A stretch of 48,880 bases of DNA. Origin: an uncultured virus (IMG/VR IMGVR_UViG_3300050503_000206) (Duplodnaviria; Heunggongvirae; Uroviricota; Caudoviricetes). Under the pieces are notes generated by a model. The model saw only the letters and a program-made list of their open reading frames with translations. It was not told the origin of the DNA and did not search any database. The stretch lies in IMG/VR virus record IMGVR_UViG_3300050503_000206. One strand, written 5' to 3'. Position numbers and translations under genes: made by a program. Positions 1-14,758 of the stretch are shown in pieces. Numbering within the stretch: the stretch's first letter is position 1; every line of letters starts with the position of its first letter.

Positions 1-360
1 TGCGCTGCGGTGTGCGGCCTTCGGCAACGTCACCTTCGCCGCGACGGCCACAGGCACGAGCGCGAGCACGGCCCCCGCTGCGATCGCGCTCGCGGTCCCG
101 ATCGGGTTCTGCAAGGGGTTGGCCGAGCGGCCCTTGGGCAGGATCGCCCCGAGCACGCCGCCCGTCACGCCGCCGGTCACGCCTGCGACCAGAGCTCGGC
201 TCCACACGCGATCGGTCGATGCCGCGGCGAAGCTCGAGGCGATGCCGATCGCGCTGCCGACGAGGCCGAGGCCGATCGCGGCCTGCTTGTCGAGTCCCCA
301 CGGGTTGCGAGGATTGCGACGGCGCCGCCGGCGACGCGGGTTCTGCTGACGTCGTTTCAT
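1..360 (-). CDS. Arg-rich NP-motif membrane protein (partial, runs off left edge)
   Basis: Manual translation from ATG at 360: MKRRQQNPRRRRRRRNPRNPWGLDKQAAIGLGLVGSAIG...GRSANPLQNPIGTASAIAAGAVLALV; ATGA overlap with upstream stop; not in ORF track. Confidence 0.8.
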   Translation of the reverse strand, partial: MKRRQQNPRRRRRRRNPRNPWGLDKQAAIGLGLVGSAIGIASSFAAASTDRVWSRALVAGVTGGVTGGVLGAILPKGRSANPLQNPIGTASAIAAGAVLALVPVAVAAKVTLPKAAHRSA

Positions 361-692
361 CCCTGCACTCCCAGCGCGAGCAGTGTGTCGCGGACTGCCT
401 GCTTTGCGCCGAGTTCGCTCGCCGTGGCGCCGCCGGCCACAGACACGCCGTTGTGGTCCACGCCCCAGATCCACGACGATCCCTCTTGGCTGATCGTCCA
501 CGAGTACTCGTTGAGCGTCCCCGAGGTGCCCATGTTCTCGGGGCGCAGGATCTCGTCGATGGCCTTCTTCGCGACGCGATGCAGCGCATACACGCCGGCG
601 GCGGCGAGCGTCACCGGCACGAGCACGACGCCAGCGACCACGATCGCCACGATCGCGCCGGTGCTGAGGTTCTTCTGGCGTCGTCGTTTCAT
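357..692 (-). CDS. putative virion membrane protein with basic leader
   Basis: MKRRRQKNLSTGAIVAIVVAGVVLVPVTLAAAGVYAL: basic N-terminus then hydrophobic helix. Confidence 0.75.
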   Translation of the reverse strand: MKRRRQKNLSTGAIVAIVVAGVVLVPVTLAAAGVYALHRVAKKAIDEILRPENMGTSGTLNEYSWTISQEGSSWIWGVDHNGVSVAGGATASELGAKQAVRDTLLALGVQG

Positions 693-697
693 CGATC

Positions 698-1171
698 TCA
701 TCTCGCCGGAGTCACCGGTGATCCCGCGGTCGTCACCACGCTCGAGCCGCGAGAGAACGGCGCGAGCACTTCACCGAATCTTCCGGTCTGCGACGGCCAC
801 CAGACGGGGTACACGGTGGGATAGCCCGTGACGCCGTACCAGTCGAGAGCGACCTGCCGATTCAGATCGATCGCGATCCGCTGCAGCGTGCGGGCCGACA
901 ACGGCCTGCCGCTGTTGACCTCGGCGAGGGTCACCGCATCGAGGTTCGCCGGCAATCGCCGGCCCATGTTCACGCCGGGCGTCGTGAACGGAATCGGCAC
1001 GCACGCGCCACCGGGACAGCAGATGCACCAGACCAGTGCCGCGCCTTGGCTCGGGCACGCCTGATACCAGCACGGCGAAGCGCCGTACGGACGAAATCCG
1101 TACGCCGGCACGGGCACCGGCACGAGCATCGAGCGGAGGATCGGACGTCTGCGGCGGAATCGTCGGGGCAT
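698..1171 (-). CDS. Cys-rich modular hypothetical protein (shares modules with 7190-7927 and 9387-10772)
   Basis: Start MPRRFRRRRPILRS with AGGAG RBS; CWYQAC..WCICCPGGACVP; C-terminal FGEVLAPFSRGSSVVTTAGSPV shared with 9387-10772. Confidence 0.75.
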   Translation of the reverse strand: MPRRFRRRRPILRSMLVPVPVPAYGFRPYGASPCWYQACPSQGAALVWCICCPGGACVPIPFTTPGVNMGRRLPANLDAVTLAEVNSGRPLSARTLQRIAIDLNRQVALDWYGVTGYPTVYPVWWPSQTGRFGEVLAPFSRGSSVVTTAGSPVTPAR

Positions 1172-1188
1172 GGTGGTCTCCTGTTGGC

Positions 1189-1416
1189 TCAGAACCAGGC
1201 GCGAGCTCGATCTTTGGTGATCGGTGGCAAGGGCATCCTTTGCATGCCGCTTTGCGCGGCAGTCTGCTGCTTCATCATGCGAAACAGATCGCACTGCTCG
1301 ATGATCTGTCCCACGTACACCTCGCGCAGCACGTAGTACGTGGCGAGACCGCTGATGGCGGCGGTGCCGGCCGCCCATGCGAACGTCGCGAGTGCACCAG
1401 GGTTGCGTCGTTTCAT
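1189..1416 (-). CDS. small NP-motif membrane protein
   Basis: MKRRNPGALATFAWAAGTAAISGLATYYVL; ATGA overlap with upstream gene. Confidence 0.75.
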   Translation of the reverse strand: MKRRNPGALATFAWAAGTAAISGLATYYVLREVYVGQIIEQCDLFRMMKQQTAAQSGMQRMPLPPITKDRARAWF

Positions 1417-1604
1417 GGAATGGCCTCCGCCAAGGTGCCGATCCGTGCGCAGATCTTGAGCGCCTTGTTGCGGCGCGCCTGCATCGCGACCGAGACCAGT
1501 GCGATGCTCGCGAGAGCCGCGCCGCCCGAGATCAGCGTCGTCATGAGCATGCTCGGATTGCGCAACGTGCTGCGCTTCGGGTTGCGGCGCGACTTGGTCT
1601 TCAT
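1413..1604 (-). CDS. small NP-motif membrane protein
   Basis: MKTKSRRNPKRSTLRNPSMLMTTLISGGAALASIALVSVAM; ATGA overlap. Confidence 0.75.
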   Translation of the reverse strand: MKTKSRRNPKRSTLRNPSMLMTTLISGGAALASIALVSVAMQARRNKALKICARIGTLAEAIP

Positions 1605-1783
1605 CGGCGGGTGTATCCCACGATGGCGAGGCCGAGCAGCGTTCCCGCCACGGCACTCGCGATCGTCGTGCTCTTGTTCTTGGTCAGCGCGTAGGCGCCG
1701 ACGGCCGACAGAGCTGCGATGGTGGCGGCCGGGACGGCGTAGGCAGCCGCCTTGCCCTTGGGATTGAGTGCCAGGGCCTTCAT
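1601..1783 (-). CDS. small two-TM NP-motif protein
   Basis: MKALALNPKGK then two Ala/Gly-rich hydrophobic segments; ATGA overlaps on both sides. Confidence 0.75.
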   Translation of the reverse strand: MKALALNPKGKAAAYAVPAATIAALSAVGAYALTKNKSTTIASAVAGTLLGLAIVGYTRR

Positions 1784-2238
1784 GCGATTGCCTTCTGCAG
1801 ACCGTGGTCCACCGCGAGTGTGGTCGCACCGATCGTCGATCCGAGCAGCAGTGCCGTGCCGGGTCCGCTCGGGTTCATCATGCGGCCGGCGGGTCCGAAC
1901 TTGAGCTCGCGGGCGACGACGGTCGCCGCGAGGCCGACGGCGAGGCCGAGTGCAGCGCCCCGCAGCGCGCCCTTGGTCGCACGCACGCCGGTCGACTCGG
2001 TCGACACCGCGAACTGTCCCGCGTCGGTCGTGACGACCGGCATCGGGGCCTTCGCGGCGCTCGAGATCGCGATGGCGATCGCGCCGAGCGTGGCGCCGAC
2101 GAGCGCGCCCTGCGTGTACGTGATCCCCGGATTGCGGGGGTTGCGACGACGACGTCGCTTGCGACGACGTGGGTTCGCTTCCGGCGTCGGATTCGCTCGA
2201 CGCTGGATGGGGCCTTGGACGGGTGCACGAGTGGACAT
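1780..2238 (-). CDS. Arg-rich NP-motif multi-TM protein
   Basis: RRANPTPEANPRRRKRRRRRNPRNP leader, three hydrophobic segments, internal MMNP before the last; AGGAG RBS. Confidence 0.8.
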   Translation of the reverse strand: MSTRAPVQGPIQRRANPTPEANPRRRKRRRRRNPRNPGITYTQGALVGATLGAIAIAISSAAKAPMPVVTTDAGQFAVSTESTGVRATKGALRGAALGLAVGLAATVVARELKFGPAGRMMNPSGPGTALLLGSTIGATTLAVDHGLQKAIA

Positions 2239-2251
2239 GAAGGTTCTCCTG

Positions 2252-2485
2252 TCAGCGACGTTGGTCGATCTGGTCGACGACGATGTACGCGAGCAACCCG
2301 AGAGCCGCGCCTGTCAGGCCCGACGCCATCGTGCTCTTGCCGAGGGGCTTGGCGGCCAGGATCCCGACGGTCGTGCCTGCAGCGGTTGCGAACATCGGCA
2401 CGACGTAGCGTCCGAGCGGATCCTGTCTCGCGATGGTGAGCGCCGAAGGGTTGCGTCGGCGGGCGAGTGCGTTGCGGCGCTTCAT
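2252..2485 (-). CDS. small NP-motif membrane protein
   Basis: MKRRNALARRRNPS then two hydrophobic segments. Confidence 0.75.
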   Translation of the reverse strand: MKRRNALARRRNPSALTIARQDPLGRYVVPMFATAAGTTVGILAAKPLGKSTMASGLTGAALGLLAYIVVDQIDQRR

Positions 2486-2724
2486 TTCCCGATCTTTCCC
2501 TGCACGCCACCGAGCACTGCCAGGAGCCCGAGTGCGGCCGCACCGGTGGCTCCTCCGACGAGCAGCGTGTCGCCGACGCCCGCCGCTTCGCCTTTTTCAC
2601 CGCGCGACTTCACGTACTTCGAAGCGAGGGCAGTGGCGACGACGCCACCAACCAACCCGAGACCGGCCCACATCGCCACGCCGGTGGCGTTGGGCCTTTG
2701 CCAGTTTTTCTTGCGGCGTGCCAT
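2482..2724 (-). CDS. small two-TM protein with basic leader
   Basis: MARRKKNWQRPNATG then two Gly-zipper-like hydrophobic segments. Confidence 0.75.
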   Translation of the reverse strand: MARRKKNWQRPNATGVAMWAGLGLVGGVVATALASKYVKSRGEKGEAAGVGDTLLVGGATGAAALGLLAVLGGVQGKIGK

Positions 2725-2728
2725 GGCG

Positions 2729-3115
2729 TCAGTACGGCTGTGCCGGGATCACGATGGGGCCGGTCTCCTGCGCTTTCTTGAGCAGGTTGCGACCCATGAG
2801 CGCCATGCCGCCGATGATCACGGCCGGCACACCGATGAGCACGCCCACCGCGATGAGCGCGACGGTGCTGCCCTTCATGTTCTTCTTGCGCGGGTTGTTG
2901 CGACGACGTCGCTTGCCGCGACGACGGCGGCGCGGGTTGTCCTCGACCGTCGTCTCCTCGGGGTTGCGGCGTCGACGGCGACGGCGGGGGTTGTCCTGCG
3001 GCTCTGCGGACTCGCCGGGGTTGCGGCGACGTCGTCGACGGCGCGGGTTGGACTCGGGGAGCTCGGGCACGAGCGCGAGCTTCGGCTTCTTGGCGGTGGC
3101 GGTGCGTGTGGTCAT
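2729..3115 (-). CDS. protamine-like Arg-rich NP-repeat membrane protein
   Basis: Three NP-polyArg-NP units separated by acidic spacers, then one TM helix. Confidence 0.8.
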   Translation of the reverse strand: MTTRTATAKKPKLALVPELPESNPRRRRRRRNPGESAEPQDNPRRRRRRRNPEETTVEDNPRRRRRGKRRRRNNPRKKNMKGSTVALIAVGVLIGVPAVIIGGMALMGRNLLKKAQETGPIVIPAQPY

Positions 3116-3270
3116 GGTGTCGATGCCGTTTTCATAGCGCGGCGCTTCGCGGCGAACATGAGCGTGCCCGCGAGCGCGAGTGGGAGGCCGACGAGCAGCC
3201 CGATCGTCAGGAGGGAATCCGTGTTCGCCATGCCGCGTCGCGACCGGGCGTTCTTTCGTTTCTTCGCCAT
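3112..3270 (-). CDS. 52-aa single-TM protein with basic leader
   Basis: Manual translation MAKKRKNARSRRGMANTDSLLTIGLLVGLPLALAGTLMFAAKRRAMKTASTP; fills the gap with start/stop overlaps on both sides; below ORF-track cutoff. Confidence 0.7.
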   Translation of the reverse strand: MAKKRKNARSRRGMANTDSLLTIGLLVGLPLALAGTLMFAAKRRAMKTASTP

Positions 3271-4043
3271 CAGTGGATCAGTCCTCTCTCGTGGAGATCG
3301 AGGTGGCCGCCGGTCACGAAGATCACGTCGGGCCGATGGTTGGGATCATCTTGATCTTGATACGTCCACACGTCCGTGTAGTGGTGGTGGATGTACTCCT
3401 GCGCACCGCGCACGCGCGGGTCGGGATTCTTGTCGTGCCACTTGTCGCTGCGGTAGCTGACGGTGTCCGACGGTCCGACGCAGGTGACGTTCGCCGCGGG
3501 GATCTCGATCTCGTCGAAGCACGACGGCTCGCGTTGGTGCCAGCGCTCGTAGGTGTCGATGGCGTTCTTGGTCGGCTTCGCGTTCAGGCTGCACGCTTGG
3601 TACGGCGCGGTCGGGAACGCGTACATGGCCTTGTTCACCTCGTCCCAGTACAGCGTGGGCTCGTCGCCGGCGAAGCGGCGCACCTGCAGCTCGCCGGCCT
3701 TGTCGACGAACGCGTACTCGACGAGCACGCCGAGTGCGACCAGATCGCCGGGCTGCGGCAGCTGCATCGAGCTTGGCCAGCCGCAGCTGCCGTTGGCGCA
3801 GCGGTTCCAGTTGCGCTTGCCCTGCTTCTTCCACGCCATGCGGACCGTCCGCCACGCCGTGGCGCTCGCGGTCTCGTCGTCGCCGTACTGCCGCATCGCG
3901 TCGGCGTAGGCCTTGTCGTAGACCTCGCGCGCGTCGTCGGGCAGGCGGCGCGGCGACGGCAACGGCGGGTCGTAGATCCCGAGCTTGCTCTCGCGGTTCT
4001 TCGCTCGAGCAGCGGCGGCGTTGCGTTGGCGTCGGGTGAGCAT
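3270..4043 (-). CDS. ChaB-like domain protein fused to unknown C-terminal domain
   Basis: LPDDAREVYDKAYADAMRQYGDDETASATAWRTVRMAWKKQGKRNW matches the ChaB pattern LP..A..Y..A...A...Y..E..A...AW..V...K...W. Confidence 0.65.
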   Translation of the reverse strand: MLTRRQRNAAAARAKNRESKLGIYDPPLPSPRRLPDDAREVYDKAYADAMRQYGDDETASATAWRTVRMAWKKQGKRNWNRCANGSCGWPSSMQLPQPGDLVALGVLVEYAFVDKAGELQVRRFAGDEPTLYWDEVNKAMYAFPTAPYQACSLNAKPTKNAIDTYERWHQREPSCFDEIEIPAANVTCVGPSDTVSYRSDKWHDKNPDPRVRGAQEYIHHHYTDVWTYQDQDDPNHRPDVIFVTGGHLDLHERGLIH

Positions 4044-4046
4044 CGA

Positions 4047-4625
4047 TCAGTTCCGCCGGCCGGGCGCCTCCTCGTCGTCGAGGTCGTCGTCGTCCTCGTC
4101 GTCGTCGTAGCCGGGGTTGTCCATCGCGGAGATCTTCTGCTCGACCGCGGCGAAGCGCTTGTCGACGTGCGCGCCGAGGCGGCGGATCTCGGCGACGATC
4201 TCAGGTGAGGGCGCGACCACCACCTGCGGTGGCGCTTGGGGGGCGTACTGCGCGGTGTTGGTCAGCCGCGGTCCGTCGCGCAAGGCCTCGGGGATGTCGC
4301 GCACGTTCGGCTGCGGCCATCCCGACGGGTACGCGGGCTGCGGGTAGCCGTACGGCGGCGGTGGCGGATAGGCGGCCGACGAGTACGGGCTCGGTTCGAG
4401 CTGGTCGACGGACTTCTCGCGTCGCAACACGCGCTTGGCGTGCTTGGTGGCGGTCTTCCACAGAAGCGACGCCGCGCCGAGCACTCCAGCTCCCACGAGC
4501 GTCGTGAGGGCCACAGTGCGCACCGTCTTCCAGGTCTCGCTCGGGTTCTTGGCGCGGCCTTGGTCGCGGCGAGGCTCTTCGTTGTTGACCACGTGGGGAC
4601 GGGGACGGTTCGGGTCTTGCGTCAT
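4047..4625 (-). CDS. NP-motif membrane protein with Pro/Tyr-rich linker and acidic tail
   Basis: RAKNP then TM segment, YPPPPPYGYPQP, short coiled coil, DNPGYDDDEDDDD. Confidence 0.75.
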   Translation of the reverse strand: MTQDPNRPRPHVVNNEEPRRDQGRAKNPSETWKTVRTVALTTLVGAGVLGAASLLWKTATKHAKRVLRREKSVDQLEPSPYSSAAYPPPPPYGYPQPAYPSGWPQPNVRDIPEALRDGPRLTNTAQYAPQAPPQVVVAPSPEIVAEIRRLGAHVDKRFAAVEQKISAMDNPGYDDDEDDDDLDDEEAPGRRN

Positions 4626-4680
4626 CGCCGATGCTCGGCCCGAACCCACCAGCATTCCGCGCGTTTGTCACGCGCCGGGT

Positions 4681-5055
4681 CTACATGCGGTTGCTGCGTC
4701 CCTGCGCCCGGCGCCGCCGCGATCCTGCGGGATTGCGCCGGGGACGCGAGGCTGTCTCCGCGATCTTGTTGCCGACGATGTGCGCCAAGGGCTCGACCAT
4801 GTCGAGGAAGTGCGACTGCTCGGGCGCGAGCCGGCGTGCCACTCGAGACGCGACGTCGATGACCGGGTTGCGCTCGTGAGAGTCGGGCACGGTGCGCGGA
4901 ATCTCGGGGTCGTCGATGAGCCGCGCGACGAGGCGACCGAGGCCGACCGTGTCGCCGGCATGGTGCACGGCTCCGGTCGCGTCGGTGACGGCGTACGTGC
5001 CGTCGGATTCGCGACAGATCCCGAGCAAGACGAGCGGCGGAGTCGGTTCGGGCAT
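4681..5055 (-). CDS. hypothetical protein with C-terminal RRNP/Arg tail
   Basis: Globular-looking N-terminus, HERNP and PRRNPAGSRRRR; fits operon orientation. Confidence 0.65.
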   Translation of the reverse strand: MPEPTPPLVLLGICRESDGTYAVTDATGAVHHAGDTVGLGRLVARLIDDPEIPRTVPDSHERNPVIDVASRVARRLAPEQSHFLDMVEPLAHIVGNKIAETASRPRRNPAGSRRRRAQGRSNRM

Positions 5056-5076
5056 CCGCCGATCCTACCCCAGTGC

Positions 5077-6024
5077 CTACGAGACGGTGAGCTCCTGCGG
5101 CATGGGCAGTACCACGCCTTGCATGTCCACGCCGAGCCTCGAGACCATCGGGGGCGGGTCGACGGTCGAGCTGCCGTCGGGCCAGGGCAGCAGCTGGATC
5201 CGAGGTACGTCGCTGCCGAGCGCCTCGAGATCGAACGCGGGCATCCACAGCACCATGTGCGAGTGGCCGAGCCCGAGCGAAGTGCCGTCGAGATCGGTGC
5301 CGCGCACCGGTGTCTGTCCCGCTCCGATCGCGTCGAGCACGTTGGTGTGCCAGGGCAGCCAGTTCAAGCCGCGGCCGGCCGCGTTCATCATGAACGTCAC
5401 CGGCTTTGCGTTCGGATCGCGGATCCCGTTGGTGCACGCCGCATTGGTCGTGCCCGATCCTTCGGTGCAGGCCTTGCCTGGATCGGTGCCGCCGGCGTAG
5501 TTCGCGTTGGTCTGTCCGAAGACACGATCATTCCATGAGCCGGGCTCGATGAGCGCACGTCGCACGTCGCGGCGGAGCCTTCGTCCGAGGATCGCGTCGG
5601 GATCCTGGCCTTGCGCGCGCGCGAGTGCGATGGCCTTGGTCGGATCCATACCGGCCATCGTCAGCGCCGAACTCAAGAGCGCAATGACGAGTTCATCGAA
5701 GCCCTGCGACGGATCGAAGGAACCGCCTTGATCGCCAGCGTCGAAGAACATGCTCGGCGTCGGGTAGTTCTCGACGTGCAGAAGCGGCTTGTTCCACGGG
5801 TAGCCAGGGTCGGTCGCGCGGCCCCATGACCATCGCGACTCGCCCATCTCCGGGACGGGCTCGTCGTCGACGGTGGGCAACGGCTCGGTGGGGACGGCGT
5901 CGACCCGCTTGCGACGACGCCACAGGTACGCACCGCCGAGCCCCGTCGCCACGGCTGCCGTCCCGGCGATCGCAGCGATCGTGATGCCGGAGGGATTGAA
6001 CAGGCGTCGTCGATCTCGTCTCAT
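5077..6024 (-). CDS. membrane-anchored putative virion protein
   Basis: MRRDRRRLFNPSG then TM (ITIAAIAGTAAVATGLGGAYLW) and RRRKR; ATGA overlap. Confidence 0.75.
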   Translation of the reverse strand: MRRDRRRLFNPSGITIAAIAGTAAVATGLGGAYLWRRRKRVDAVPTEPLPTVDDEPVPEMGESRWSWGRATDPGYPWNKPLLHVENYPTPSMFFDAGDQGGSFDPSQGFDELVIALLSSALTMAGMDPTKAIALARAQGQDPDAILGRRLRRDVRRALIEPGSWNDRVFGQTNANYAGGTDPGKACTEGSGTTNAACTNGIRDPNAKPVTFMMNAAGRGLNWLPWHTNVLDAIGAGQTPVRGTDLDGTSLGLGHSHMVLWMPAFDLEALGSDVPRIQLLPWPDGSSTVDPPPMVSRLGVDMQGVVLPMPQELTVS

Positions 6025-6503
6025 GGCTGCGGGACCGGGATGTTCGCGGGTCGCGGCGTCGTCGGATCGCACGCGGTCTCGGTGACGATGGCCTCGCGCG
6101 CGAGCAGACCGAGCTCGGTCCACATCTGGCTCACGGTCGGGTGATCCCCCATGACCGGCGGCCATTCGAAGTCCGGGTGCAGCCGATGCGCGACGCACAA
6201 GCGCAGCTCTTCGACGAGCACGTCGATGTCGGCATCGTCGGCGGCGTCGGAAAGGACGTCCTCGGCGCAATCGCAGACTTCGTCGGTCAGGCGCTGGAAA
6301 TCGTCCGGCGTATCGGGCAGGTGCACGCGGTAGTCCGGATCGGGCAACCGCCAGCCCTCGAGCAGGTCGTCGGCGGCCTTCTGCACCTCGCGCTGCGTCG
6401 CGATCCAGTAACCGAGGCCGATCCCGACCGCGGCCGTCACGAGGCCCACCGCGTACGCGGCGATCGGCGCGGGGTTGATCACGTTGCGTCTTCGTTTTCT
6501 CAT
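6021..6503 (-). CDS. membrane-anchored putative virion protein
   Basis: MRKRRRNVINPAP then TM (IAAYAVGLVTAAVGIGLGYWIA); ATGA overlap. Confidence 0.75.
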   Translation of the reverse strand: MRKRRRNVINPAPIAAYAVGLVTAAVGIGLGYWIATQREVQKAADDLLEGWRLPDPDYRVHLPDTPDDFQRLTDEVCDCAEDVLSDAADDADIDVLVEELRLCVAHRLHPDFEWPPVMGDHPTVSQMWTELGLLAREAIVTETACDPTTPRPANIPVPQP

Positions 6504-7162
6504 CTTCGCCTCAGCGGCACTACGGCGCCGTTCTTGGTGCGTGCCCACTGCTGTCCGCCCGGCGAGCGGTGGACGCTCGAGAGCGACTCGCGTCGCCCCG
6601 ACAGTCCCGGCACGTCGGGGCAGATCCACTTGCCGCGCGCGTCGACGTAGCAGCGCGGCGGGAGGTTGCAGTGCACGCGACCATCTTCGCCGATCTCGCA
6701 GCTCTGCGGGGCGACGCGACGCTTGGGACGTCCGGGAATGTGGTGGCGAAGCCCGCGTTGGAAGTTGACCACGGGATCGTGCACGCCGAGCTCGGAGACG
6801 ACGACGGCGTGGAAGTCGTTGTCGGCCTGCGGCACCGAGACCGGCAGCGCCGGCACGCCGTACTTCTCCTCGAGCACCGCGGCCTCGTACGCGGCTGCGT
6901 CGCCACAGCTGAACGCACCGCGGTCGACGCAGGCTCCGATCCCGTACACGTCCATGAGCGGCTCGCCGGCGGCGTTGGTGCGGCGCTGCTCGGGCTTGTA
7001 GGCGAGACCCCACTCGCCGATCGTGTCGGGGATCTCGTCACCACGCGCGAGCATGGCTCGGATCACGCGACGGTTGTCGTCCTGCGTCATCTCCAGCGCT
7101 TGCTGGTAGGTGTCGCGGCTGCCGTCGCCGGCCGGCATGCAGAGGTGGAGCGTGAGCAGCAT
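6500..7162 (-). CDS. transglutaminase-like cysteine protease candidate
   Basis: Ordered Cys-His-Asp pattern: RGAFSCGDAAAYEAA...FHAVV...VHDP, resembling G(D)C.D / H / DP of the transglutaminase-like fold; Cys-rich C-terminus. Confidence 0.55.
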   Translation of the reverse strand: MLLTLHLCMPAGDGSRDTYQQALEMTQDDNRRVIRAMLARGDEIPDTIGEWGLAYKPEQRRTNAAGEPLMDVYGIGACVDRGAFSCGDAAAYEAAVLEEKYGVPALPVSVPQADNDFHAVVVSELGVHDPVVNFQRGLRHHIPGRPKRRVAPQSCEIGEDGRVHCNLPPRCYVDARGKWICPDVPGLSGRRESLSSVHRSPGGQQWARTKNGAVVPLRRR

Positions 7163-7189
7163 GGACCCTTGGACCCGTGGACCAGTCCG

Positions 7190-7927
7190 TCAGGGAACGT
7201 CGGGGTAGGTGACGCAGATCGGCAGCGCGCTGCCTTCGTAGCTGCAGCACTTCGCGTAGTCGGGAGCGCCGGTCCACCAGCAGACCTCGCCCGGTCGCCC
7301 GCCGGCGGCGGCCGCGAGCGGGAACGGCTTGAACGCCGAAGCCTGCGGCCACATGCCGCCATGGTAGAAGCGCGTCGCCCGACGACTTGGTGCCGTCGAT
7401 GCTTGCGTCGTCGCGTCGGTGATCATGTGAGGGAGGCTCCAGCCCGCGACGAGCGCCATGAGCGTCTCGTTCTGGCCCATGACCTGGATGACCTCGACGT
7501 CGTGACTGTGCACAGGACCGGCGCCGTGCATCCACAGCTTCGCGGGGCCCGGCACTGCGCCCGAAAGCTTAACCCAGGATTCGGGGTGGCTTGCCGGACG
7601 ATCGAAGTACGACGCCTTGAACCACCGGTTCGCGACGCCCGCGTTGCGCCACGCCGCTCCGCTGCGCACGTTGACGGGTGCCGGTGGGTTTGTGAACCGC
7701 ATCGGTCGACCGTACAGGTCGACGCCGCCCGGTCCGAGAATCGGCAGCGGAACGCACGTGCCCGATGCCCCGCAACAGATATAGGCCTGGCCGCCGTAGT
7801 AGACGACCTGGCACTGCTCGGCGCGCGCCGTCGGCAGCACCGAGCGCAGATACGCGATCTCTGCTTGGGTCGCCGCGCGTCGGCCGAGATGGGCGCGAAG
7901 GATCGGACGCTTCGGTCGAAGTCGCAT
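7190..7927 (-). CDS. Cys-rich modular hypothetical protein
   Basis: RPILR leader like 698-1171; YICCGASGTCVPLP; RFTNP; WFKASYF..P..WVKL module like 9387-10772; C-terminal CWW..CC. Confidence 0.75.
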   Translation of the reverse strand: MRLRPKRPILRAHLGRRAATQAEIAYLRSVLPTARAEQCQVVYYGGQAYICCGASGTCVPLPILGPGGVDLYGRPMRFTNPPAPVNVRSGAAWRNAGVANRWFKASYFDRPASHPESWVKLSGAVPGPAKLWMHGAGPVHSHDVEVIQVMGQNETLMALVAGWSLPHMITDATTQASTAPSRRATRFYHGGMWPQASAFKPFPLAAAAGGRPGEVCWWTGAPDYAKCCSYEGSALPICVTYPDVP

Positions 7928-7930
7928 CGC

Positions 7931-8479
7931 TCACTGCCCTCCGTAGGCGTCGGCCCACCACGCCGCCATGTTGTCCGCGACGTAGTCGTACGCCGCGGTG
8001 AACTGTTGCTGTGACCATCCCGCGGTCGCATTCTTCGTGATGGGATCGTAGTCGTCGCCGACGAGTCCCGTCGCCGCCATCACAGCCGCCGTTTCGGCGA
8101 AGTCAGGGATGTCGTTGGGCGGGTAGGCGACCGGTCCCTTGAGCTGCGCGAGGATCTGTCCGAACCACAGCGCGCGGCGGTGCAGCCACAGCTTCTGCGC
8201 GTTGGAGAGCAGGTTCGAGGTGAACTCGGTGTCCTGCGACGGCACGTAGTTGTACTGCGGCGCTCGCGGACGGAAGGCAGGCTTGTACGCCGGATTCGGA
8301 GCCGGATTCGTCGCCATGCCGCTCGAGCGCTGGCCGAACCCGGATGGACCTCCTCGAGGGTTGTACTCGGGCAGCTGTCCCGAGCCACATGCGGCCGCGG
8401 CGATCTCGGCGGGATTCTGCGCCGCCGCCAAGAGCATGGCCCGGTTCATCTGGTTCATCGGTCGGCGTGGTCGGATCAT
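7931..8479 (-). CDS. hypothetical putative virion protein with multiple NP motifs
   Basis: MIRPRRPMNQ..AAQNP..YNP..ATNPAPNP, then helical C-terminal domain. Confidence 0.7.
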   Translation of the reverse strand: MIRPRRPMNQMNRAMLLAAAQNPAEIAAAACGSGQLPEYNPRGGPSGFGQRSSGMATNPAPNPAYKPAFRPRAPQYNYVPSQDTEFTSNLLSNAQKLWLHRRALWFGQILAQLKGPVAYPPNDIPDFAETAAVMAATGLVGDDYDPITKNATAGWSQQQFTAAYDYVADNMAAWWADAYGGQ

Positions 8480-8493
8480 GGTAGCTCGCGATC

Positions 8494-9390
8494 TCAGAGG
8501 TTGAGGATCTGGACGATGGTGATCTGCGCCGAGCCTTCGAGCGGATTGACGACGAAGGCGTTGACGTTGCCGGGGATCGGGATGATCGGGCTCGTCGTCG
8601 ATCCAGCCGGAATCGTGAGCGTCGCGATCGTGACGAAACCGAACGCGGGCGTCTCGTTCGCCGGCAAGATGGGGTTGGTGAACGCGTACACCATGTCGAT
8701 CTCGAGCGGACCGACGGTGTCGGACATGACGATCACCTCGCGCGCCGCCGGCATCACGGGCATCGTCAGCCCGGTCTCGCCGACGAGGAAGCTCTGCGTG
8801 TACGTGAGCGGATTCTTCTCGTGGCTGTTGCTTGAGGCGCAATACACCGCCGTGGTGAAGATCGTGCCGAGCGCGAACGGGTTCGCCGTCACGTCCTCCG
8901 GCGTGAGTCCGCCGCCTGCGGGATCGGGCACGAGCGCGTCGATCCCGAGCACGGCGTAGCAGCGCACGTCGAACTCGACGCCGGCGCCGACATCGAAGTC
9001 GAAGTCGCGCGTGCGCGTGTTGCCCATCGACAGCTTGATCCGCGCCTTGAGCATCGATGCTCGGTTGCCTCGGCTCTCGATGGCGCTCGCGTCGACGCCC
9101 TCGATGGTCGTGCCGACGGGAAGCATGGCTTCTCGCGGCTCGATGCTGACGTGATGCCACGTTCCCACAGGCTGCGAGTTCTCGGTCTGATCGCCGGGAT
9201 GCATCGACCATCCACCGCGCATCGGCATCGTGCGCGGCGCGACGACCTGTGCGTAGCCCGAGCCCGCGACGGGCGATTGCCCGAGCCGATCGCCCGGCGG
9301 TGCCCAGCGCAGGAGGAAGGGATTCGCGAGCGGAGCGACGACGAGGTAGTCGAAGGCCGAGGGTAGCGGCGGATGTCTCGTGAGGTTCAC
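8494..9390 (-). CDS. beta-rich putative structural protein (jelly-roll-like candidate)
   Basis: Alternating hydrophobic beta-strand pattern throughout (ARIKLSMG, DFDFDVG, VEFDV, ITIVQIL); GTGA overlap; no TM. Confidence 0.55.
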   Translation of the reverse strand: MNLTRHPPLPSAFDYLVVAPLANPFLLRWAPPGDRLGQSPVAGSGYAQVVAPRTMPMRGGWSMHPGDQTENSQPVGTWHHVSIEPREAMLPVGTTIEGVDASAIESRGNRASMLKARIKLSMGNTRTRDFDFDVGAGVEFDVRCYAVLGIDALVPDPAGGGLTPEDVTANPFALGTIFTTAVYCASSNSHEKNPLTYTQSFLVGETGLTMPVMPAAREVIVMSDTVGPLEIDMVYAFTNPILPANETPAFGFVTIATLTIPAGSTTSPIIPIPGNVNAFVVNPLEGSAQITIVQILNL

Positions 9391-10772
9391 GCTGCGTCCT
9401 CGCAGTCGGAGCAGCCTTCACCGAGAGCACACGACTCGCAGCAGTGGCCGTCGTGCTCCCACCACGCGACGCCTTGGTCCGGGGCCACGGGGAACTCGGC
9501 GACGACCTCGGCGCCTGTCGTCGGGTCGACGTAGCTCACCGCGATGAGCGAGCCTTCGAGCAGATCTCCGTGATCGCTCTCGATGTCGGTGACCTCGACG
9601 CCATGCAGCGGCGATCCCGGACAATGCAACCGCAACCCTTGGACGTCGACCATGACCGCGCAGTCGCCCGAGCTCGGCGGGCTCGGGTTGCGCCGCGTCA
9701 GCGACTGACGCGGGACGGGGTTGCGAACCGGTCGCATCGAGAAGCTCATGGTCTCGGTGGGCACCGTGTTCGGAGAAGGAGGGATGTCCGGACCTCCGGG
9801 CCACGATCCGGGACCAGGATCGCTCGTGTCCCACGAGAACTGCGGAAGGATCCTGGCTTCGAACGTTCCGGATCCTGTGTGCCTCGTCTCAGCGACGAGC
9901 TGCTGCTGCTGCGCGCCCCACTGCGTGAAGAGGATCGCGTTGTAGAACGCGTACTGCTGCGGCTGCCCCGGGGCATGAAAGAGTGCGGGCGCCTGCGGAT
10001 GAGGACTGACGATCTTGATCCATCGCCTCGCGTTGTTGTACGGAGGTCCCGGGAAGTACGTCGCCGTCAGCCAACCTGTCGGCAGCGCCGACGATCCCGG
10101 ATCGCCGTGCGCAGTCGGCTTCTTGAACTGCGGCTGCATCTGCCCCCCCAACTGCGAACTCCTCGTCGCTCGACCGGCTCGAGCGAGCGAGCCTTGGACG
10201 TCTTGGTAGGGGTTCGCCGTGCGCACCGGCGATCCCGCGGTCGTGCGCACGCTTCCGCCCTGCGAGAAGGGTGCGAGTACTTCGCCGAATCCGCCGGTCA
10301 GCGACGGACCGAACATCTCCGCGACGGTCGGCGCGTAGGTGGGAGTCACGTCCACGAACACGCCCGACGGGTTGTTGTAGATCGCGGTGATCCGCACCAT
10401 CGTCGGCATGGCCACGCCGACGGTGTAGAGCCACGCGGTCGCGCCCGGCGTCGCACCGTGAGGCGCCACGACGTACTGATTGGCGCCCGGGGGCGGAGAG
10501 TTCGGCGCCGGCGCCACGGGAATCATCGACGGGTTACCGATCCGCGTCATGGACACGCGTCGGTTCGCTCGAGCGACACCCGGAGCTCCGGTGTTGTTGC
10601 TGCCGCCGCCGCCCGGCGTCGACACGCCGCCCGGGAAACACGCGGGCCACGGCGTTTCGGTCGTGCAGCAGAGCCAGCCCGTCTCGGTCCACCAGCAGCT
10701 GTTCGAGCCCGCGGTCGCGAGCTTGCCGGGGTTTCGGTGGGACAACGACTGCTTCGGGACTTCGCGGGCCAT
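9387..10772 (-). CDS. NP-delimited modular (polyprotein-like) Cys-rich protein
   Basis: VPKQSLSHRNP..., RIGNP, RTANP, VRNPVPRQSLTRRNP; C-terminal HCCESCALGEGCSDC; AGGAG RBS. Confidence 0.8.
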   Translation of the reverse strand: MAREVPKQSLSHRNPGKLATAGSNSCWWTETGWLCCTTETPWPACFPGGVSTPGGGGSNNTGAPGVARANRRVSMTRIGNPSMIPVAPAPNSPPPGANQYVVAPHGATPGATAWLYTVGVAMPTMVRITAIYNNPSGVFVDVTPTYAPTVAEMFGPSLTGGFGEVLAPFSQGGSVRTTAGSPVRTANPYQDVQGSLARAGRATRSSQLGGQMQPQFKKPTAHGDPGSSALPTGWLTATYFPGPPYNNARRWIKIVSPHPQAPALFHAPGQPQQYAFYNAILFTQWGAQQQQLVAETRHTGSGTFEARILPQFSWDTSDPGPGSWPGGPDIPPSPNTVPTETMSFSMRPVRNPVPRQSLTRRNPSPPSSGDCAVMVDVQGLRLHCPGSPLHGVEVTDIESDHGDLLEGSLIAVSYVDPTTGAEVVAEFPVAPDQGVAWWEHDGHCCESCALGEGCSDCEDAA

Positions 10773-10802
10773 GGTGGTCTCCTGGGGACTTTCGAGACAT
10801 GA

Positions 10803-10838
10803 GAAAAGGGGCGAGGCCGCGTTGCGTCCCCGCCCCTT
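10803..10838 (-). terminator. rho-independent terminator candidate after putative capsid gene
   Basis: AAGGGGCG (10806-10813) pairs with CGCCCCTT (10831-10838); minus-strand stem is followed by a short U tract. Confidence 0.6.
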
Positions 10839-10868
10839 CGTTCTGCGATCCGCGAGGCGAAACGCCGA

Positions 10869-11615
10869 TCAGACCGGGACGCCGGAGCCCGGGGGCAGAC
10901 CGGGCGAACCGACCAGGTTGCCCGGGCCGACCATGCCGCCGCCGTAGGGGCCGGGGCCGGGGAACATCGGCCAGCAGTCGTTGAAGAAGTTGACCGCCTT
11001 GCCGACGATGATCATGTCGAGCGTCGGGAGCACGCTGAGCGTGTCGAGCGGGTCGAACGTGATCGTGAGCGGAGCGAGGTTGCTGAAGCAGCCCCAGTCG
11101 AAGGGGCAGTAGCAGTCGTCCGTGTTCCAGTACGCGACGTCGAAGCCCGCATCCGGACCGCACGTGCGCTCGTACCCGTTGAAGCCGCTGATGATCGACG
11201 TCACCAGGAGCTGGAGCGGGCTGTTGAACGAGCGCGCGCCGCACCCGTAGAAGAACTTGTTGCCGCACGTGACCGACAGCGTGAAGCTGCCGAGGCTCGA
11301 CGGCGTCGCGACGATGCCGAGCAAGCTCTGGTTCTGCACCCACGGTCCGACGGGACCGCCGTAGCCCTGGAAGGGCGAGGCGATCGGACCGGTGCATCCA
11401 TCACCCCACGGGCCGCATCCCGCCATCGAACCGTCGGGTGCGCCTTGCGGCACCTGGTACTGCGGGTACTGGGGCTGGTTGTACTGCTGGGGCATCATGG
11501 GCCCCTGTCCCGCCATCGCGCCCGAGTGTGCGCCCTGGGGAACTCCGCCGCGCCGTTGCGCGATTCGCTGCTTCGCGAGAGCGATGTTGCTCCCACCTTG
11601 ATAGTTGCCGAACAT
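10869..11615 (-). CDS. candidate major capsid protein (single jelly-roll-like beta domain)
   Basis: Gln/Gly/Pro-rich N-arm, ~120-aa beta-rich domain (FTLSVT, LLVTSII, LTITF, LDMIIVGKAV), strong GAAGGAG RBS, downstream terminator; CDS is secure, capsid role is inference. Confidence 0.45.
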   Translation of the reverse strand: MFGNYQGGSNIALAKQRIAQRRGGVPQGAHSGAMAGQGPMMPQQYNQPQYPQYQVPQGAPDGSMAGCGPWGDGCTGPIASPFQGYGGPVGPWVQNQSLLGIVATPSSLGSFTLSVTCGNKFFYGCGARSFNSPLQLLVTSIISGFNGYERTCGPDAGFDVAYWNTDDCYCPFDWGCFSNLAPLTITFDPLDTLSVLPTLDMIIVGKAVNFFNDCWPMFPGPGPYGGGMVGPGNLVGSPGLPPGSGVPV

Positions 11616-11762
11616 GGGTCGTGTCTCCTTCGTGGTTGACTCCCCGGGTTCGATCGAGCGGTTCCCTCGTCATTCGACTCGGGCCTTGTGCCCCGCAACC
11701 GATCCTCCGCGAACGTTGGATCTGGGGCGGGGCTCGTCCGCCGGGTCAGGAACTTGCTTCGG

Positions 11763-12377
11763 TTACGCCGCCTCCGACTTGGGGGCGATCGAGATCTGCA
11801 CCTCGCCGCGACTGATCGCGCGCTCGCGAGAGCAGAAGGAACGGCCGCGCGCGTACGTGCCGAAGCCGTACGCCAGCGTCATGACCATCGAGTAGAACAT
11901 CGCCGACTCGCCGAAGCCCGGGATCGTCTTGCGACCGTTGATCGTCTTCGGACGCACCGAGCGCGCGAGCCCGTAGAAGGCTCCGAAGGCGAGCGGGGGC
12001 AGTGCGAGCCACGGCACGCCGAGGAAGGCCGTCGCCGGATCCTTCACGCCCTCGAGCTCCCACGGCACCGGGCAGTCGTCGGACGCCGCATTGCCGGCGC
12101 CGATCCACTCGGCGAGCATCGCGTCGCGGTCGGCTTCGACGCGGCCATCGAGCCACGCTGCACCGAGCGTCGCGCCGACGCCGATCAGCATGCCCATGCC
12201 TTCGCGTGCGGCCACCGCCATGGAGTCCGCTTGACTGTCGCTCTGGTTCTTCTTGCGCGCGAGCTTGGTGACGCTCTTCGCGACGAGCTCGGGGTTGGTC
12301 CGCGCGAGATCGTAGACGTTGTCGTGAACGTCTCGGGGGTTCTGTTCGCGCTGACGTGCGACGAGTGCCTTGGCCAT
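11763..12377 (-). CDS. multi-TM membrane protein with NP motifs
   Basis: MAKALVARQREQNP..ARTNP; three hydrophobic segments; first gene of the leftward block. Confidence 0.75.
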   Translation of the reverse strand: MAKALVARQREQNPRDVHDNVYDLARTNPELVAKSVTKLARKKNQSDSQADSMAVAAREGMGMLIGVGATLGAAWLDGRVEADRDAMLAEWIGAGNAASDDCPVPWELEGVKDPATAFLGVPWLALPPLAFGAFYGLARSVRPKTINGRKTIPGFGESAMFYSMVMTLAYGFGTYARGRSFCSRERAISRGEVQISIAPKSEAA

Positions 12378-12549
12378 GATGCGTTGGATCCTGTGTGGAA
12401 GGTGCGGCGTCGTGCCGACGTCGCCGGGACCCAACCAGCATCGGGGCGATCGGTCAAGCGGGGCCGTGAGGCCCTCTTTCTCGCGATTCCAGGCGACTTC
12501 AGACGCATTCAGACACCTCGCGCGAAGACGGCGCTACGCTGGCGGCACG

Positions 12550-14298
12550 ATGCCATCGAAGGCCGAACCGTACGCCGACGTCACCTGCTCTCCTCCGTTT
12601 CGACTCCCGTCGACGGCCCGACTCGAAGGCCGTGATCCTCCGGACAACCTCGAGCGGCAGATCAAGCTCATGCACGCGGGCCTGCGCCGCGTGTGCATCG
12701 AGGCGCTCGGCGTTCGTGATGCGAAGGGCGAACCCGTTGGGATCTTCCAACGCTTCGCGTTCGTCTGCGGCGACGACCGCAAGCCGTCACAGTCGCCTCG
12801 CATGATCGCCGTGCTCGCGATGGAGAGCGCCGAGATGTTCGCTCGCAAGTGCGATCACCTCGTGAAGTTTCGAGTCTACGTCGAGACGCGTCTCGACACC
12901 GGGAAGATCTTCGAGAAGCAGGTTCGCGTGACGGTCGATCCTTCGCGACTCGAAGATCCGGACGAGGAGTCCGACGATGACGACGACGATGCCGAGGATG
13001 AGGACGATGATGAAGACGACGACGAGGACGACGACGAGCGCCGCGAGGAAGAAGAAGATGAACAGGACGAGTACGACGAGGACGACGACGACTTCGAGGA
13101 CATCGTGAATCCGCCCGAGACCGTCGCCGCGGCGCCTCGCGTGCAATCCAACGGCAATGGGAGGACGCGCGACGGTGCGGCGGAGTACGTCGACACGTCG
13201 AACCTCGGGAAGATCGAGCCCGCCATGCAGATCCACTCATCGGTGCAGCAGGCGCAGGCGATGGGGCTGCAACCCGATCTGAGCGGCGGACTGCCGCTCG
13301 AGCACAACCCGATGTTCTTCCTCCAGCTCATGGATCGGCAGGCGGCTCTCGTTGCCCGGATCTTCGCCGCGAACATGCGCGACTCTCGGAAGGAGCGTCG
13401 GCTCATGGCGCGGCAGATGGAGAAGACGATGCGCGAGGGTCGTCGAACGATGCGCATGGTGGTCGATGGAGCGATCGCCGAACGCGACAACGCCAACCGC
13501 CACGCCGAGAACCTGGGACAGCAGATCATCGACATCACCAACGCCCAGCGCGCCGACGTCGAGAACTACCAGCAGATCGCGGCGCACTCGTGGAAGGCCT
13601 TCCGGCACGCGCAGGAGACCGAACTCTCGATGGCCGGCAAGATCCTGGGCTACGAGCGCGCGATGTTCGACGAGCGGCTCGCCGCCGCTGAAGATCGCGC
13701 TGCACTGCCTCCGGCCACGTCGCAGTGGCCAGCGATGATCAAAGGCGCGATCCCTGGCGCGCTCGGGATCGGGGCGTTCATCGCCAACTCCAAGGGCGAC
13801 ACCAAGATGGCCGAGCTGCTCGGCTCGCTCGCGAAGCTGCTCGCACCGACTCCGGACGAGCAGTACGAGGACGACGAGGAACTGGATGAGGACGCGCCCC
13901 AGCAAGCCGAGCACGCTCGAGCGGAGCCCGACGACGTCGTCGATGCCGAGGCGCGCGAGGCTCCGCAGCGCACGGAGTCCAGAGAGAAGTCGCCGACGCG
14001 CGACAGCGCGCGAGCGCTGCTCGAGACGATCGACATCGAGCAGGCCAGCACCCTACGACGTGTGCTCCCCACCGGCGCGTGGGAGGCCTTCGAGCAGACC
14101 GCCAACGCCCGCACCGAGAGTTCGGCGCGCTTGGCCGTCCGCCGCCTCGACGAACTCGTGCGCCGCGATGGAGCAGCCCAGGCCGCCGTGGTCGCCGCGC
14201 TGCGGGCCGATCAGGTCCAGTCGCTGTTCGCGATCATTCGCATGACGCAGCGGCGTACGGTGCCCCCGCGTCCGCGCGCGAGCGCGTCCGCGGGCTAG
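12550..14298 (+). CDS. large protein with poly-acidic tract, coiled coil and hydrophobic segment
   Basis: Start MPSKAEPY; ~45-residue D/E tract at 12961-13101; helical coiled-coil region; GAIPGALGIGAFIA segment. Confidence 0.8.
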   Translation: MPSKAEPYADVTCSPPFRLPSTARLEGRDPPDNLERQIKLMHAGLRRVCIEALGVRDAKGEPVGIFQRFAFVCGDDRKPSQSPRMIAVLAMESAEMFARKCDHLVKFRVYVETRLDTGKIFEKQVRVTVDPSRLEDPDEESDDDDDDAEDEDDDEDDDEDDDERREEEEDEQDEYDEDDDDFEDIVNPPETVAAAPRVQSNGNGRTRDGAAEYVDTSNLGKIEPAMQIHSSVQQAQAMGLQPDLSGGLPLEHNPMFFLQLMDRQAALVARIFAANMRDSRKERRLMARQMEKTMREGRRTMRMVVDGAIAERDNANRHAENLGQQIIDITNAQRADVENYQQIAAHSWKAFRHAQETELSMAGKILGYERAMFDERLAAAEDRAALPPATSQWPAMIKGAIPGALGIGAFIANSKGDTKMAELLGSLAKLLAPTPDEQYEDDEELDEDAPQQAEHARAEPDDVVDAEAREAPQRTESREKSPTRDSARALLETIDIEQASTLRRVLPTGAWEAFEQTANARTESSARLAVRRLDELVRRDGAAQAAVVAALRADQVQSLFAIIRMTQRRTVPPRPRASASAG

Positions 14299-14513
14299 CG
14301 ATCGACGAGCGCTTCGATGAACGTGATCTGATGACGGCGCTCGGCGCGGGTCGGTCCGCCGCCGATGCGTCGCCGACGGCCGCAACACATCGGGCACGAG
14401 CAGATCTTCAGGTTGTCGGCGAGGCGCGCCGCGGCGTGGTCGAGCTCGACGTCGGTGGCCACCACCAGGCCGCTCCACCAGCGCTGCTGGACGGCGCGGG
14501 CTCGGGCGACCAT
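14295..14513 (-). CDS. small Cys-motif phage protein
   Basis: CSCPMCC.RRR...TRAERR pattern; start uncertain. Confidence 0.5.
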   Translation of the reverse strand: MVARARAVQQRWWSGLVVATDVELDHAAARLADNLKICSCPMCCGRRRRIGGGPTRAERRHQITFIEALVDR

Positions 14514-14635
14514 GCGGCGCCGGTGATGCCGTCGGGGGCTCGAGAGGCGTCCACGCGTCCATGTGCGCCATGCTCGAGAGCGCCGATCAAGGGTAATCGA
14601 CCGACCCGACTGATCAGTCGATGTTCGAATGAGCA

Positions 14636-14758
14636 GGTTACCGGTGGTTACCGGTGGTTACCGGTTACCAGAGGGTCATGTTGTTCAGAAATCGGTGTTA
14701 AAAAAAAGTTCCGATTTCTGTAGAGGATCGAAGATCTTGACCGGTAACCACCGGTAAC
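14636..14758. repeat. GGTTACCGGT iterons / 19-bp inverted repeat, candidate replication origin
   Basis: Tandem GGTTACCGGT at 14636, 14646, 14656; inverted copies at 14740-14758; A8 tract at 14700-14707 between them; immediately downstream of helicase gene. Confidence 0.7.

Follow-up and report, generated by a model that had tools for sequence, protein, structure and literature searches.

An Asn-Pro core in the basic leaders of dissimilar proteins from one gene block of an uncultured virus

The window analysed here is a 48,880 bp stretch of DNA (G+C ~67%) from an uncultured virus, IMG/VR record IMGVR_UViG_3300050503_000206, in which 72 genes were called by codon log-likelihood. Proteins of its left gene block possess a recurring N-terminal unit consisting of Met, a basic arm of 3 to >30 residues, the dipeptide Asn-Pro (NP), a few small, Pro or Gly residues and a hydrophobic helix rich in Gly, Ala and Thr. 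This NP leader pattern is real and far beyond chance. We propose that NP forms the fixed core of a modular leader on at least 13 mutually dissimilar proteins of an ORFan, structural-looking block, and tentatively prefer to see NP as a short linear motif that is recognised in trans and serves processing or docking. NP would then be read by a factor belonging to the element, which would trim or dock the proteins at the boundary of Arg arm and membrane anchor during particle assembly, and the best candidate for this reader would be the co-encoded protein 6500-7162(-). NP is thus a candidate proteome-wide motif with a candidate enzyme nearby, and none of the element's structural genes matches a known family. 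Full-text literature searches, judged mostly from abstracts, brought up no phage or virus membrane protein for which a basic-NP leader is described.

Enrichment of NP and anatomy of the leader

Three blocks were compared, the left with 22 proteins (3909 amino acids), the central with 41 and the right with 9. The minus strand carries every gene of 1-12434, the plus strand every gene of 41539-48840. The left block overruns the 1-12377 of the preliminary description at both ends, up to 12434 and past window position 1 (L001:19031-20616; L001 is the element's own metagenome contig, and its positions 1-19390 are the reverse complement of window 19390-1). Expected values come from per-protein residue shuffles in 5000 rounds. 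The left block contains 41 NP against 13.5±3.4 expected, a count reached by 0/5000 shuffles (maximum 28). NP with R or K at -3 to -1 occurs 25 times against 3.6±1.8 (0/5000), in agreement with the preliminary description, where NP was said to follow basic residues as a rule. NP within the first 40 residues is present in 13 proteins against 2.3±1.4 (0/5000), and at least one NP is found in 16 of the 22 proteins, close to the about 17 carriers listed there. The central proteins possess 14 NP against 9.95, without significant excess (641/5000 shuffles reach 14), and a single protein with NP in its first 40 residues against 1.5 expected. In the right block 9 NP stand against 5.5 (440/5000), which is not significant for the block; two clear leaders, those of 41539 and 42937, are nevertheless present. 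A third right-block protein reported as a carrier, 45297-45725(+), has a leader without NP (RRRRRNLS), its three NPs being located at residues 57, 69 and 95.

An artefact, either of local richness in R, N and P or of diverged paralogues inheriting one N-terminus, is scarcely credible. The first 40 residues are indeed rich in R (14%) and P (9%), and short membrane proteins quickly lose detectable similarity. A stricter null, with the shuffle limited to residues 2-40 of 24 proteins (the 22 of the left block and two continuing past the window start), nevertheless gives 3.9±1.6 proteins with NP against 15/24 observed (0/5000), while the first 40 residues hold no excess of the reversed PN (2 vs 4.2 expected). 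After removal of two repeat-rich proteins the left block still holds 29 NP vs 11.8 expected. By this local shuffle and this removal a composition artefact is largely refuted. Inheritance from one ancestor could draw on the all-against-all BLASTP of the carriers, in which just two weak pairs occur, 1601~2252 (E 0.01) and 2729~3112 (E 0.001); the carriers otherwise do not appear detectably paralogous, they include large proteins with unrelated globular domains, and NP is retained under divergence where its flanks are not.

The dipeptide ratios of the left block are 3.0x for NP, 1.3x for DP, 0.9x for SP and 0.7x for TP. Those of the central block, 1.4x for NP and 1.5x for DP, are taken as ordinary Asx-Pro background. 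The codons at NP vary, with both AAC and AAT and all four Pro codons, hence the signal lies at the protein level and a DNA-level motif is ruled out. An AAT excess specific to NP is likewise ruled out, since T-ending codons are preferred before CCN genome-wide and this preference accounts for the apparent excess: in all window genes the T-ending share of the choice between C- and T-ending codons is 21-70% before CCN vs 4-20% otherwise (15/15 amino acids tabulated). Avoidance of deamidation, with NP favoured and Asn-Gly (NG) avoided in long-lived particle proteins, was also considered. NG is depleted in the left block (6 vs 13.6 expected) and enriched in the centre (25 vs 13.5), but the depletion is not repeated in related loci (observed/expected 11/13.1 in L003, 13/7.2 in L004 and 8/9.6 in L006) and the idea was rejected. 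C-terminal Arg tails are not distinctive either, with at least three R/K in the last six residues in 1/21 left, 2/41 central and 2/9 right proteins.

In nine proteins of the window and its continuation NP is located 0-16 residues ahead of the first hydrophobic helix according to a script, and the same layout is visible by eye in four more (1189-1416(-), 6021-6503(-), 41539-41688(+) and 42937-43683(+)), which makes 13 carriers in total and confirms the placement before a helix described earlier. Many leaders are just 4-9 residues long (MKRRNP...). Leaders of window, related loci and database homologues were pooled into 44 instances, one protein being counted twice (P0018 = L003:16882-18201). 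Position -3 is R in 22 of these and position -1 is R or K in 23; the residue after Pro is S in 12, T in 6, V in 6, P in 4 and G in 3, and the basic flanks around NP are of low complexity. NP on both sides of a poly-Arg tract, with acidic residues before the first NP, is found in several proteins, e.g. 2729-3115(-) (three units), 1780-2238(-), L001:19031-19747 and L001:19768-20616.

NP might also be passive punctuation, an Asx-Pro turn or helix N-cap that separates the highly charged Arg arm, which would bind nucleic acid or lipid, from the helix and delimits the poly-Arg tracts while nothing reads or cuts it; this is the main rival of the favoured reading and only somewhat less probable. Established helix starts include an Asn N-cap followed by Pro at N1 and the NPA half-helices of aquaporins. 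NP occurs on the N-terminal side of helices only, never on their basic C-terminal flank, it starts helices elsewhere in the window (TNPELVAKS, QNPAEIAAA, LNPKRWIAAIW), and background genes already show a 1.4-1.5x Asx-Pro excess. Against such a turn, Pro or Gly is frequent within three residues after NP in the pooled instances (NPxP, NPGG) and gives a poor start for a continuous helix, the distance from NP to the hydrophobic core varies over 0-16 residues, and neither the block- and clade-confined excess nor the acidic-NP-Rn-NP arrays would be explained. The resemblance extends to basic DNA-binding turns of the SPKK/AT-hook type, which likewise combine Asn or Ser, Pro and subsequent basic residues (NPRR resembles SPKK). 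These turns and helix N-caps tolerate S, T or D for N, however, whereas N is nearly invariant here and NP leaders are confined to one gene block. Even as a mere turn or hinge, NP would be a striking rule, specific to the lineage, by which poly-arginine arms are connected to membrane helices.

Conservation of NP among relatives

Relatives were sought with the marker protein 8494-9390(-), an all-beta protein of 298 amino acids with a conserved ANPFLL near its N-terminus. It has 12 homologues in a large protein collection and is encoded in 6 metagenome loci, i.e. the own contig L001, L003 (59% identity), L004 (37%), L006 (30%) and the short L002 and L005; L001, L003, L004 and L006 are syntenic with the left block. 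The marker itself starts MNLTRHPP, its L003 orthologue M(M)TNPACF. No relatives were found among phages (DNA and protein searches) or plasmids, in IMG/VR (single proteins; alignments A1, A3 and A4) or in GTDB genome contigs (alignments A1 and A3). On the structural side of the related loci NP is again in excess, with 32 vs 9.8 expected in L003, 13 vs 6.8 in L004 (attained by a fraction of 0.016 of the shuffles) and 22 vs 10.3 in L006. Proteins with an early NP number 10, 5 and 6, respectively, vs 1.1-1.6 expected, and the genes on the other side show none.

The most extensive comparison is available for 5077-6072(-). A 28-sequence alignment (A2) was too diverse for locus search and the smaller A3 was used, with 10 sequences that are 38-77% identical to the first. 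The only positions kept in the A3 leader are R at -3 (invariant), N (invariant) and P (9/10), as in the orthologous leaders RRRLFNPSG, RRMPNPSP, RMRNPIT and RLSNPTP, and the flanks drift. Conservation of R(-3), N and P amid drifting flanks is what a linear motif would be expected to show. A search with 5077-6072, exhaustive and profile-free, yielded 83 cluster representatives, 44 of them with an N-terminal helix. NP is found in the zone from -15 to +3 of helix 1 in 20 of these 44, vs 4.5±1.8 by shuffling (maximum 12 in 5000). The same zone across the family contains NP 25 times, TP 5 times, and SP and DP once each, so that SP, TP or DP almost never replace NP here or in orthologues, contrary to a passive turn. 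NP is present in 15/21 closer vs 5/23 distant representatives, and the distant half is almost without a basic arm.

Other families behave similarly. NP is kept in 4/4 members of the 4047-4655(-) family (AMPNPEG, AVPNPPSE and AVPNPETS in relatives), and for 11763-12434(-) the first NP is kept in 3/4 loci and the second in 4/4. Both NPs of 1780-2238 recur in L003:15725-16174, and L003 also keeps the NP of 2252-2485(-). In the family of L001:19768 the bracket [DE]-x-NP-(R/K/G)n-RRNP-helix is kept in all five full-length members (50-64% identical), and the sequences of two shorter database entries begin only after the leader. L003 (MTRRHKYRRNPEEARRSRLW) shares the NP leader of 6021-6503, but the orthologues in L004 and L006 lack it. 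Tandem NP units are most regular in L006:7544-9991, where AGPxxDQNP(P)GRRE is repeated as five 15-residue units. This is an 815-aa Cys-rich protein with repeated CC...C modules, whose C-terminal end, ..NPRKRRILSGNR, is common to L004:4541-5176. A split gene of L003 (9519-9974) was considered as a natural test of cutting at NP and dropped, its start codon being uncertain.

Most closer 5077 representatives and the 6021 family of window and L003 carry NP, and distant ones mostly do not; on sequence comparison, the leader therefore is a clade-linked modular add-on kept by selection. Two checks of the preliminary interpretation, enrichment over composition-matched nulls in flanking versus central proteins and conservation in homologues, turned out in its favour, the latter extending to the 20 of 44 helix-bearing representatives. 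We favour a short linear motif read in trans because two to three positions are fixed in a variable context, the carriers are unrelated, tandem arrays occur and presence follows the clade. If NP is read in trans, particle components could be listed from sequence alone.

Candidate reader and comparison with known systems

Protein 6500-7162, already flagged in the preliminary description, indeed looks enzyme-like. It comprises 220 amino acids, its gene is present in all four loci, and 38 homologues are known. In 27 aligned sequences, down to 42% identity, S85-C86, H118 and D129-P130 are invariant, and in a C-terminal four-Cys module C155 and C165 are invariant, C171 and C181 nearly so. Its AlphaFold2 (AF2) model has a predicted local distance difference test (pLDDT) of 89.4. 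In the VIA structural search transglutaminase/papain-like Cys enzymes lead, namely 3kd4 (Z 6.2, root-mean-square deviation (rmsd) 4.0, 116 aligned), TglA (Z 6.1), PeiW (Z 5.4), PeiP (Z 5.0), LapG (Z 4.7, rmsd 3.7, 96 aligned), a TGase (Z 4.6), factor XIII (Z 4.3), TgpA (Z 4.2) and TG2 (Z 4.0), with PNGase/Rad4 and arylamine N-acetyltransferases after them; no clan CE chain is among the 50 best VIA rows. A sequence-model match is found in none of Pfam, PHROG and NCBIfam, and a PDB-profile search with alignment A4 gave nothing meaningful. The model is suggestive of a transglutaminase/papain-like Cys-His-Asp fold, a call that stops short of proof as every VIA row stays below Z 8. A predicted complex of 6500-7162 (A4) with leader and helix of the 5077 family (A3 residues 1-60) scored 0.00 vs a mark of 0.32, which speaks neither for nor against an interaction.

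Adenoviruses, poxviruses and African swine fever virus (ASFV) coordinate particle maturation by short motifs common to the structural proteome. The virion cysteine proteases concerned are adenovirus AVP, acting on pVII and pX, poxvirus I7 at AG-X and ASFV pS273R at GG-X. For bacterial viruses we know of no comparable description; their capsid proteases have one or a few scaffold and capsid proteins as substrates. The element shares with the eukaryotic viruses one short motif on many unrelated structural-type proteins (13 dissimilar carriers), carriers that include Arg-rich proteins and a membrane protein, and a Cys enzyme gene within the block. It differs in the motif, N-P instead of G-G or A-G, in a candidate enzyme that may be transglutaminase/papain-like rather than Ulp1-like, and in a host that appears prokaryotic. 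LapG, a bacterial transglutaminase-like cysteine proteinase, acts at a two-residue motif of a surface protein, from which it removes an N-terminal module. The model of 6500-7162 aligns with it at Z 4.7, below Z 8, but 6500-7162 differs from LapG in its lack of a sequence-model match and its additional four-Cys C-terminal module.

We infer that the motif is read in trans with 6500-7162 as its reader, that the carriers are virion components and that their Arg arms bind nucleic acid. The more specific proposal that 6500-7162 cuts at NP, trims ~12 anchored proteins and frees protamine-like, genome-condensing R7-R9 peptides appears improbable. Bacterial viruses would then have an equivalent of the core-protein processing of adenoviruses and poxviruses, with another protease fold and another motif. 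Release of peptides would concern the bracketed tracts of 2729-3115, 1780-2238 and L001:19768-20616, and release of DNA-condensing peptides is conceivable for such long NP-Rn-NP tracts only, most leaders being too short to be a useful source. Of the preliminary interpretation, the enrichment and conservation of NP therefore stand, the release idea shrinks to these tracts, and the precedents it named do not fit.

Several observations weigh against a motif read in trans by 6500-7162 on virion proteins. NP is absent from five basic-leader proteins with a hydrophobic helix (357-701(-), 2482-2724(-), 3112-3270(-), 42233-42940(+) and 45297-45725(+)), and N-L-S replaces N-P-S/T in 357-701 (RRRQKNLSTG) and 45297-45725 (RRRRRNLSRN). 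The residues ahead of NP are heterogeneous, i.e. basic beside the helix, acidic before Arg tracts and hydrophobic or Pro in some orthologues, which sits uneasily with a protease or docking site whose recognition extends beyond two residues. Distant leaderless 5077 homologues (P0070, P0078, P0087) retain NP directly after Met, as M-N-P or M-A-N-P right before the helix, and this suits a structural role of the dipeptide better. As to the enzyme, Foldseek gave no match to the 6500-7162 model at E<=1e-3 (best TgpA, E 0.15), all VIA rows lie below Z 8, and the matched fold group spans proteases, cross-linkers and cell-wall isopeptidases; with PeiW and PeiP among the latter, 6500-7162 may be a lysin. 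On the virion side, family searches of the window proteins found no capsid, portal, terminase, packaging ATPase or integrase family. The association of the block with a virion, for which gene order and a jelly-roll-like domain are the sole indications, is unproven. This domain belongs to the marker protein 8494-9390, whose AF2 model has a mean pLDDT of 48.7 with only residues 195-298 confident. Its C-terminal part (187-298) resembles jelly-roll-like sandwiches, those of viral coat and penton proteins and equally many non-viral ones; the VIA rows of this low-confidence model (Ena Z 8.2, nanovirus coat 7.9, PR772 7.0, STIV A223 6.4) are mixed with many non-viral sandwiches, and Foldseek found no match at E<=1e-3.

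The host could read the leader as well, as a variant twin-arginine translocation (Tat) signal, a Sec or signal-anchor n-region, or a leader of class III (prepilin-like) that a host peptidase cuts at the cytoplasmic face; we regard this explanation as distinctly improbable. The Tat signal is S/T-R-R-x-F-L-K, and in type IV prepilins a dedicated peptidase cuts at the boundary of leader and helix, with Gly or Ala at -1 and Glu at +5. The layout of the element, in which a hydrophobic N-terminal segment rich in Gly, Ala and Thr comes straight after a short, positively charged leader, does resemble prepilin leaders and Tat h-regions. In the element, however, the basic pair is followed by N-P and then mostly S, T, V, P or G, not by two hydrophobic residues. 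The pooled instances lack Gly/Ala at -1 (R or K in 23/44) and Glu at +5, and a family search found no prepilin peptidase among the window proteins. None of 34 flank proteins reaches the NCBIfam signal/sorting cut-off, in a search whose HMMER filters easily miss short signals. Most helices, furthermore, are also directly followed by a basic cluster; with basic clusters on both flanks a positive-inside reading of topology is not cleanly applicable, and a translocated substrate would not be expected to look like this. The leader is missing from the two small central-block proteins that possess a helix.

Spontaneous cleavage at Asn-Pro is slow in free peptides, and the motif of FlhB/YscU, the precedent named in the preliminary description, is NPTH. 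Intrinsic autocleavage by attack of the Asn side chain, without any protease and of the reovirus mu1/VP5, FlhB/YscU or RsgI type, is very improbable for the leaders. Bracketed NP-Rn-NP units would give uniform peptides by this route, and the dipeptide is that of the known systems according to the excerpts of PMC10328401 and PMC9148132. As far as these excerpts go, aquareovirus VP5 and orthoreovirus mu1 cleave at Asn42-Pro43 near the N-terminus and free a small peptide (PMC9148132, PMC10328401), and Asn-Pro autocleavages act inside folded domains, the RsgI site being a turn between beta-strands (PMC10328401). The sites described there for VP5/mu1 and RsgI are single, folded and have conserved neighbours, whereas NP here is multiple and located in variable, low-complexity basic leaders, which offer no such folded context. 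T-H follows NP in 0/44 leader instances, and the FlhB/YscU precedent thus does not fit.

Carrier genes, genomic setting and further features

The carriers of the left block are given here in the order of the window, and all are on the minus strand. The gene at 1-360 is cut by the window start and represents the 5' part of a leader protein gene (238 aa as L001:19031-19747); it begins MKRRQQNPRRRRRRRNPRNPWGLDK, a hydrophobic helix follows, and NP is located 7 aa before this helix. Three short proteins come next, 1189-1416 (75 aa, MKRRNPGALATFAWAAG..., NP codons 1399-1404), 1413-1604 (63 aa, MKTKSRRNPKRSTLRNPSMLMTTLISGG..., NP at 1578-1583 and 1554-1559) and 1601-1783 (60 aa, MKALALNPKGKAAAYAV..., NP at 1760-1765). 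The bracketed poly-Arg protein 1780-2238 (152 aa) contains ..RRANPTPEANPRRRKRRRRRNPRNPGITY followed by a helix, and a second NP (MMNPSGP) before a later helix. The leader of 2252-2485 (77 aa) is MKRRNALARRRNPSALTIARQ, and its orthologue L003:15487-15702 starts MARRNPTAIQIARE. Protein 2729-3115 (128 aa) comprises three units of acidic spacer-NP-R7-NP, i.e. six NPs, and then one helix. In 4047-4655 (202 aa) ..GRAKNPSETWKTVR precedes the helix; while its N-terminus is basic, its C-terminal tail is conserved and poly-acidic (DDDEDDDDLDDEE), and similar tails are found in L003, L004 and L006.

Protein 5077-6072 (331 aa) possesses the leader RRDRRRLFNPSG, a helix and a conserved globular domain; its true start is probably the ATG at 6024 (MRRDRRRLFNP). 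The overlapping 6021-6503 (160 aa) starts MRKRRRNVINP and reads MRKRRRNVINPAPIAAYAVGLV...; it is the source of the RRRNVINP listed in the preliminary description. In the Cys-rich 9387-10772 (461 aa), HRNPGK is found at residue 14, and the linker preceding the C-terminal domain contains RPVRNPVPRQSLTRRNPSPP. Two N-terminal NPs (REQNPRD, RTNPELVAKS) are present in 11763-12434 according to gene call and orthologues, and its start is probably the ATG at 12377 (MAKALVARQREQNP). On the plus strand of the right block, 41539-41688 (49 aa) carries the leader MKRIRANPDKPNPSKTAWAIIGVLVG and 42937-43683 (248 aa) the leader MMAKRRRRRRRGRANPMANSAKATIALGV; the start of the latter is 42937, not 42985, giving MMAKRRRRRRRGRANP. 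Start-codon corrections rest on orthologues and on stop/start overlap.

The central replication genes are phage-like and encode a DUF927 primase-helicase, a Toprim protein, a C5 methyltransferase, a Dda/RecD-like helicase and an SF2 helicase. The matches of the primase-helicase in cultured phages are distant (22-30% identity). Of the left-block proteins 0/21 match a PHROG family, and the sole Pfam match above cut-off is ChaB (3270-4043(-)). A tRNA search of window and loci found none. Contigs of relatives reach 172-176 kb, so the window may represent about a quarter of a larger genome. L001 starts at contig position 29129, which corresponds to window position 19390 on the other strand, and the window end (48880) would land ~360 bases ahead of where the 172,068-base contig begins; two assemblies, 172,068 and 172,251 bases long, carry identical proteins. 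With the window end falling before the contig start and two assemblies with identical proteins, the genome may be circular or permuted, at ~172 kb.

Proteins 10869-11615(-) of the left and 41693-42133(+) of the right block share an 85-residue region (29% identity, E 1e-4), hence the two blocks may hold paralogous structural domains. A protein atlas search with 10869-11615 gave weak leads only (0.85). A search of BFVD yielded no match at E<=1e-3. Beside the left block, 12550-14298(+) encodes a divergently transcribed 582-aa protein with a long poly-Asp/Glu tract, which has no family match and lies next to the block in all relatives. Its counterparts beside the Arg-rich block (L003:5779-7416, L004:325-1827 and L006:3838-5526) comprise ~500-580 aa and are likewise rich in poly-Asp/Glu, and the protein could be a charge-neutralising chaperone or scaffold.

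A second N-terminal motif, [RK]RPILR, occurs in 698-1171(-), 7190-7927(-) and L003:10929-11450 (MPRRFRRRRPILRSML, MRLRPKRPILRAHL and MAIMRSKRPILRAQI). In 698-1171 and 7190-7927 it is followed by a Cys-rich segment C-C-x-G-x-x-C-V-P-[IL]-P. Furthermore, a 36-residue stretch with 72% identity is common to 698-1171 and the Cys-rich 9387-10772.

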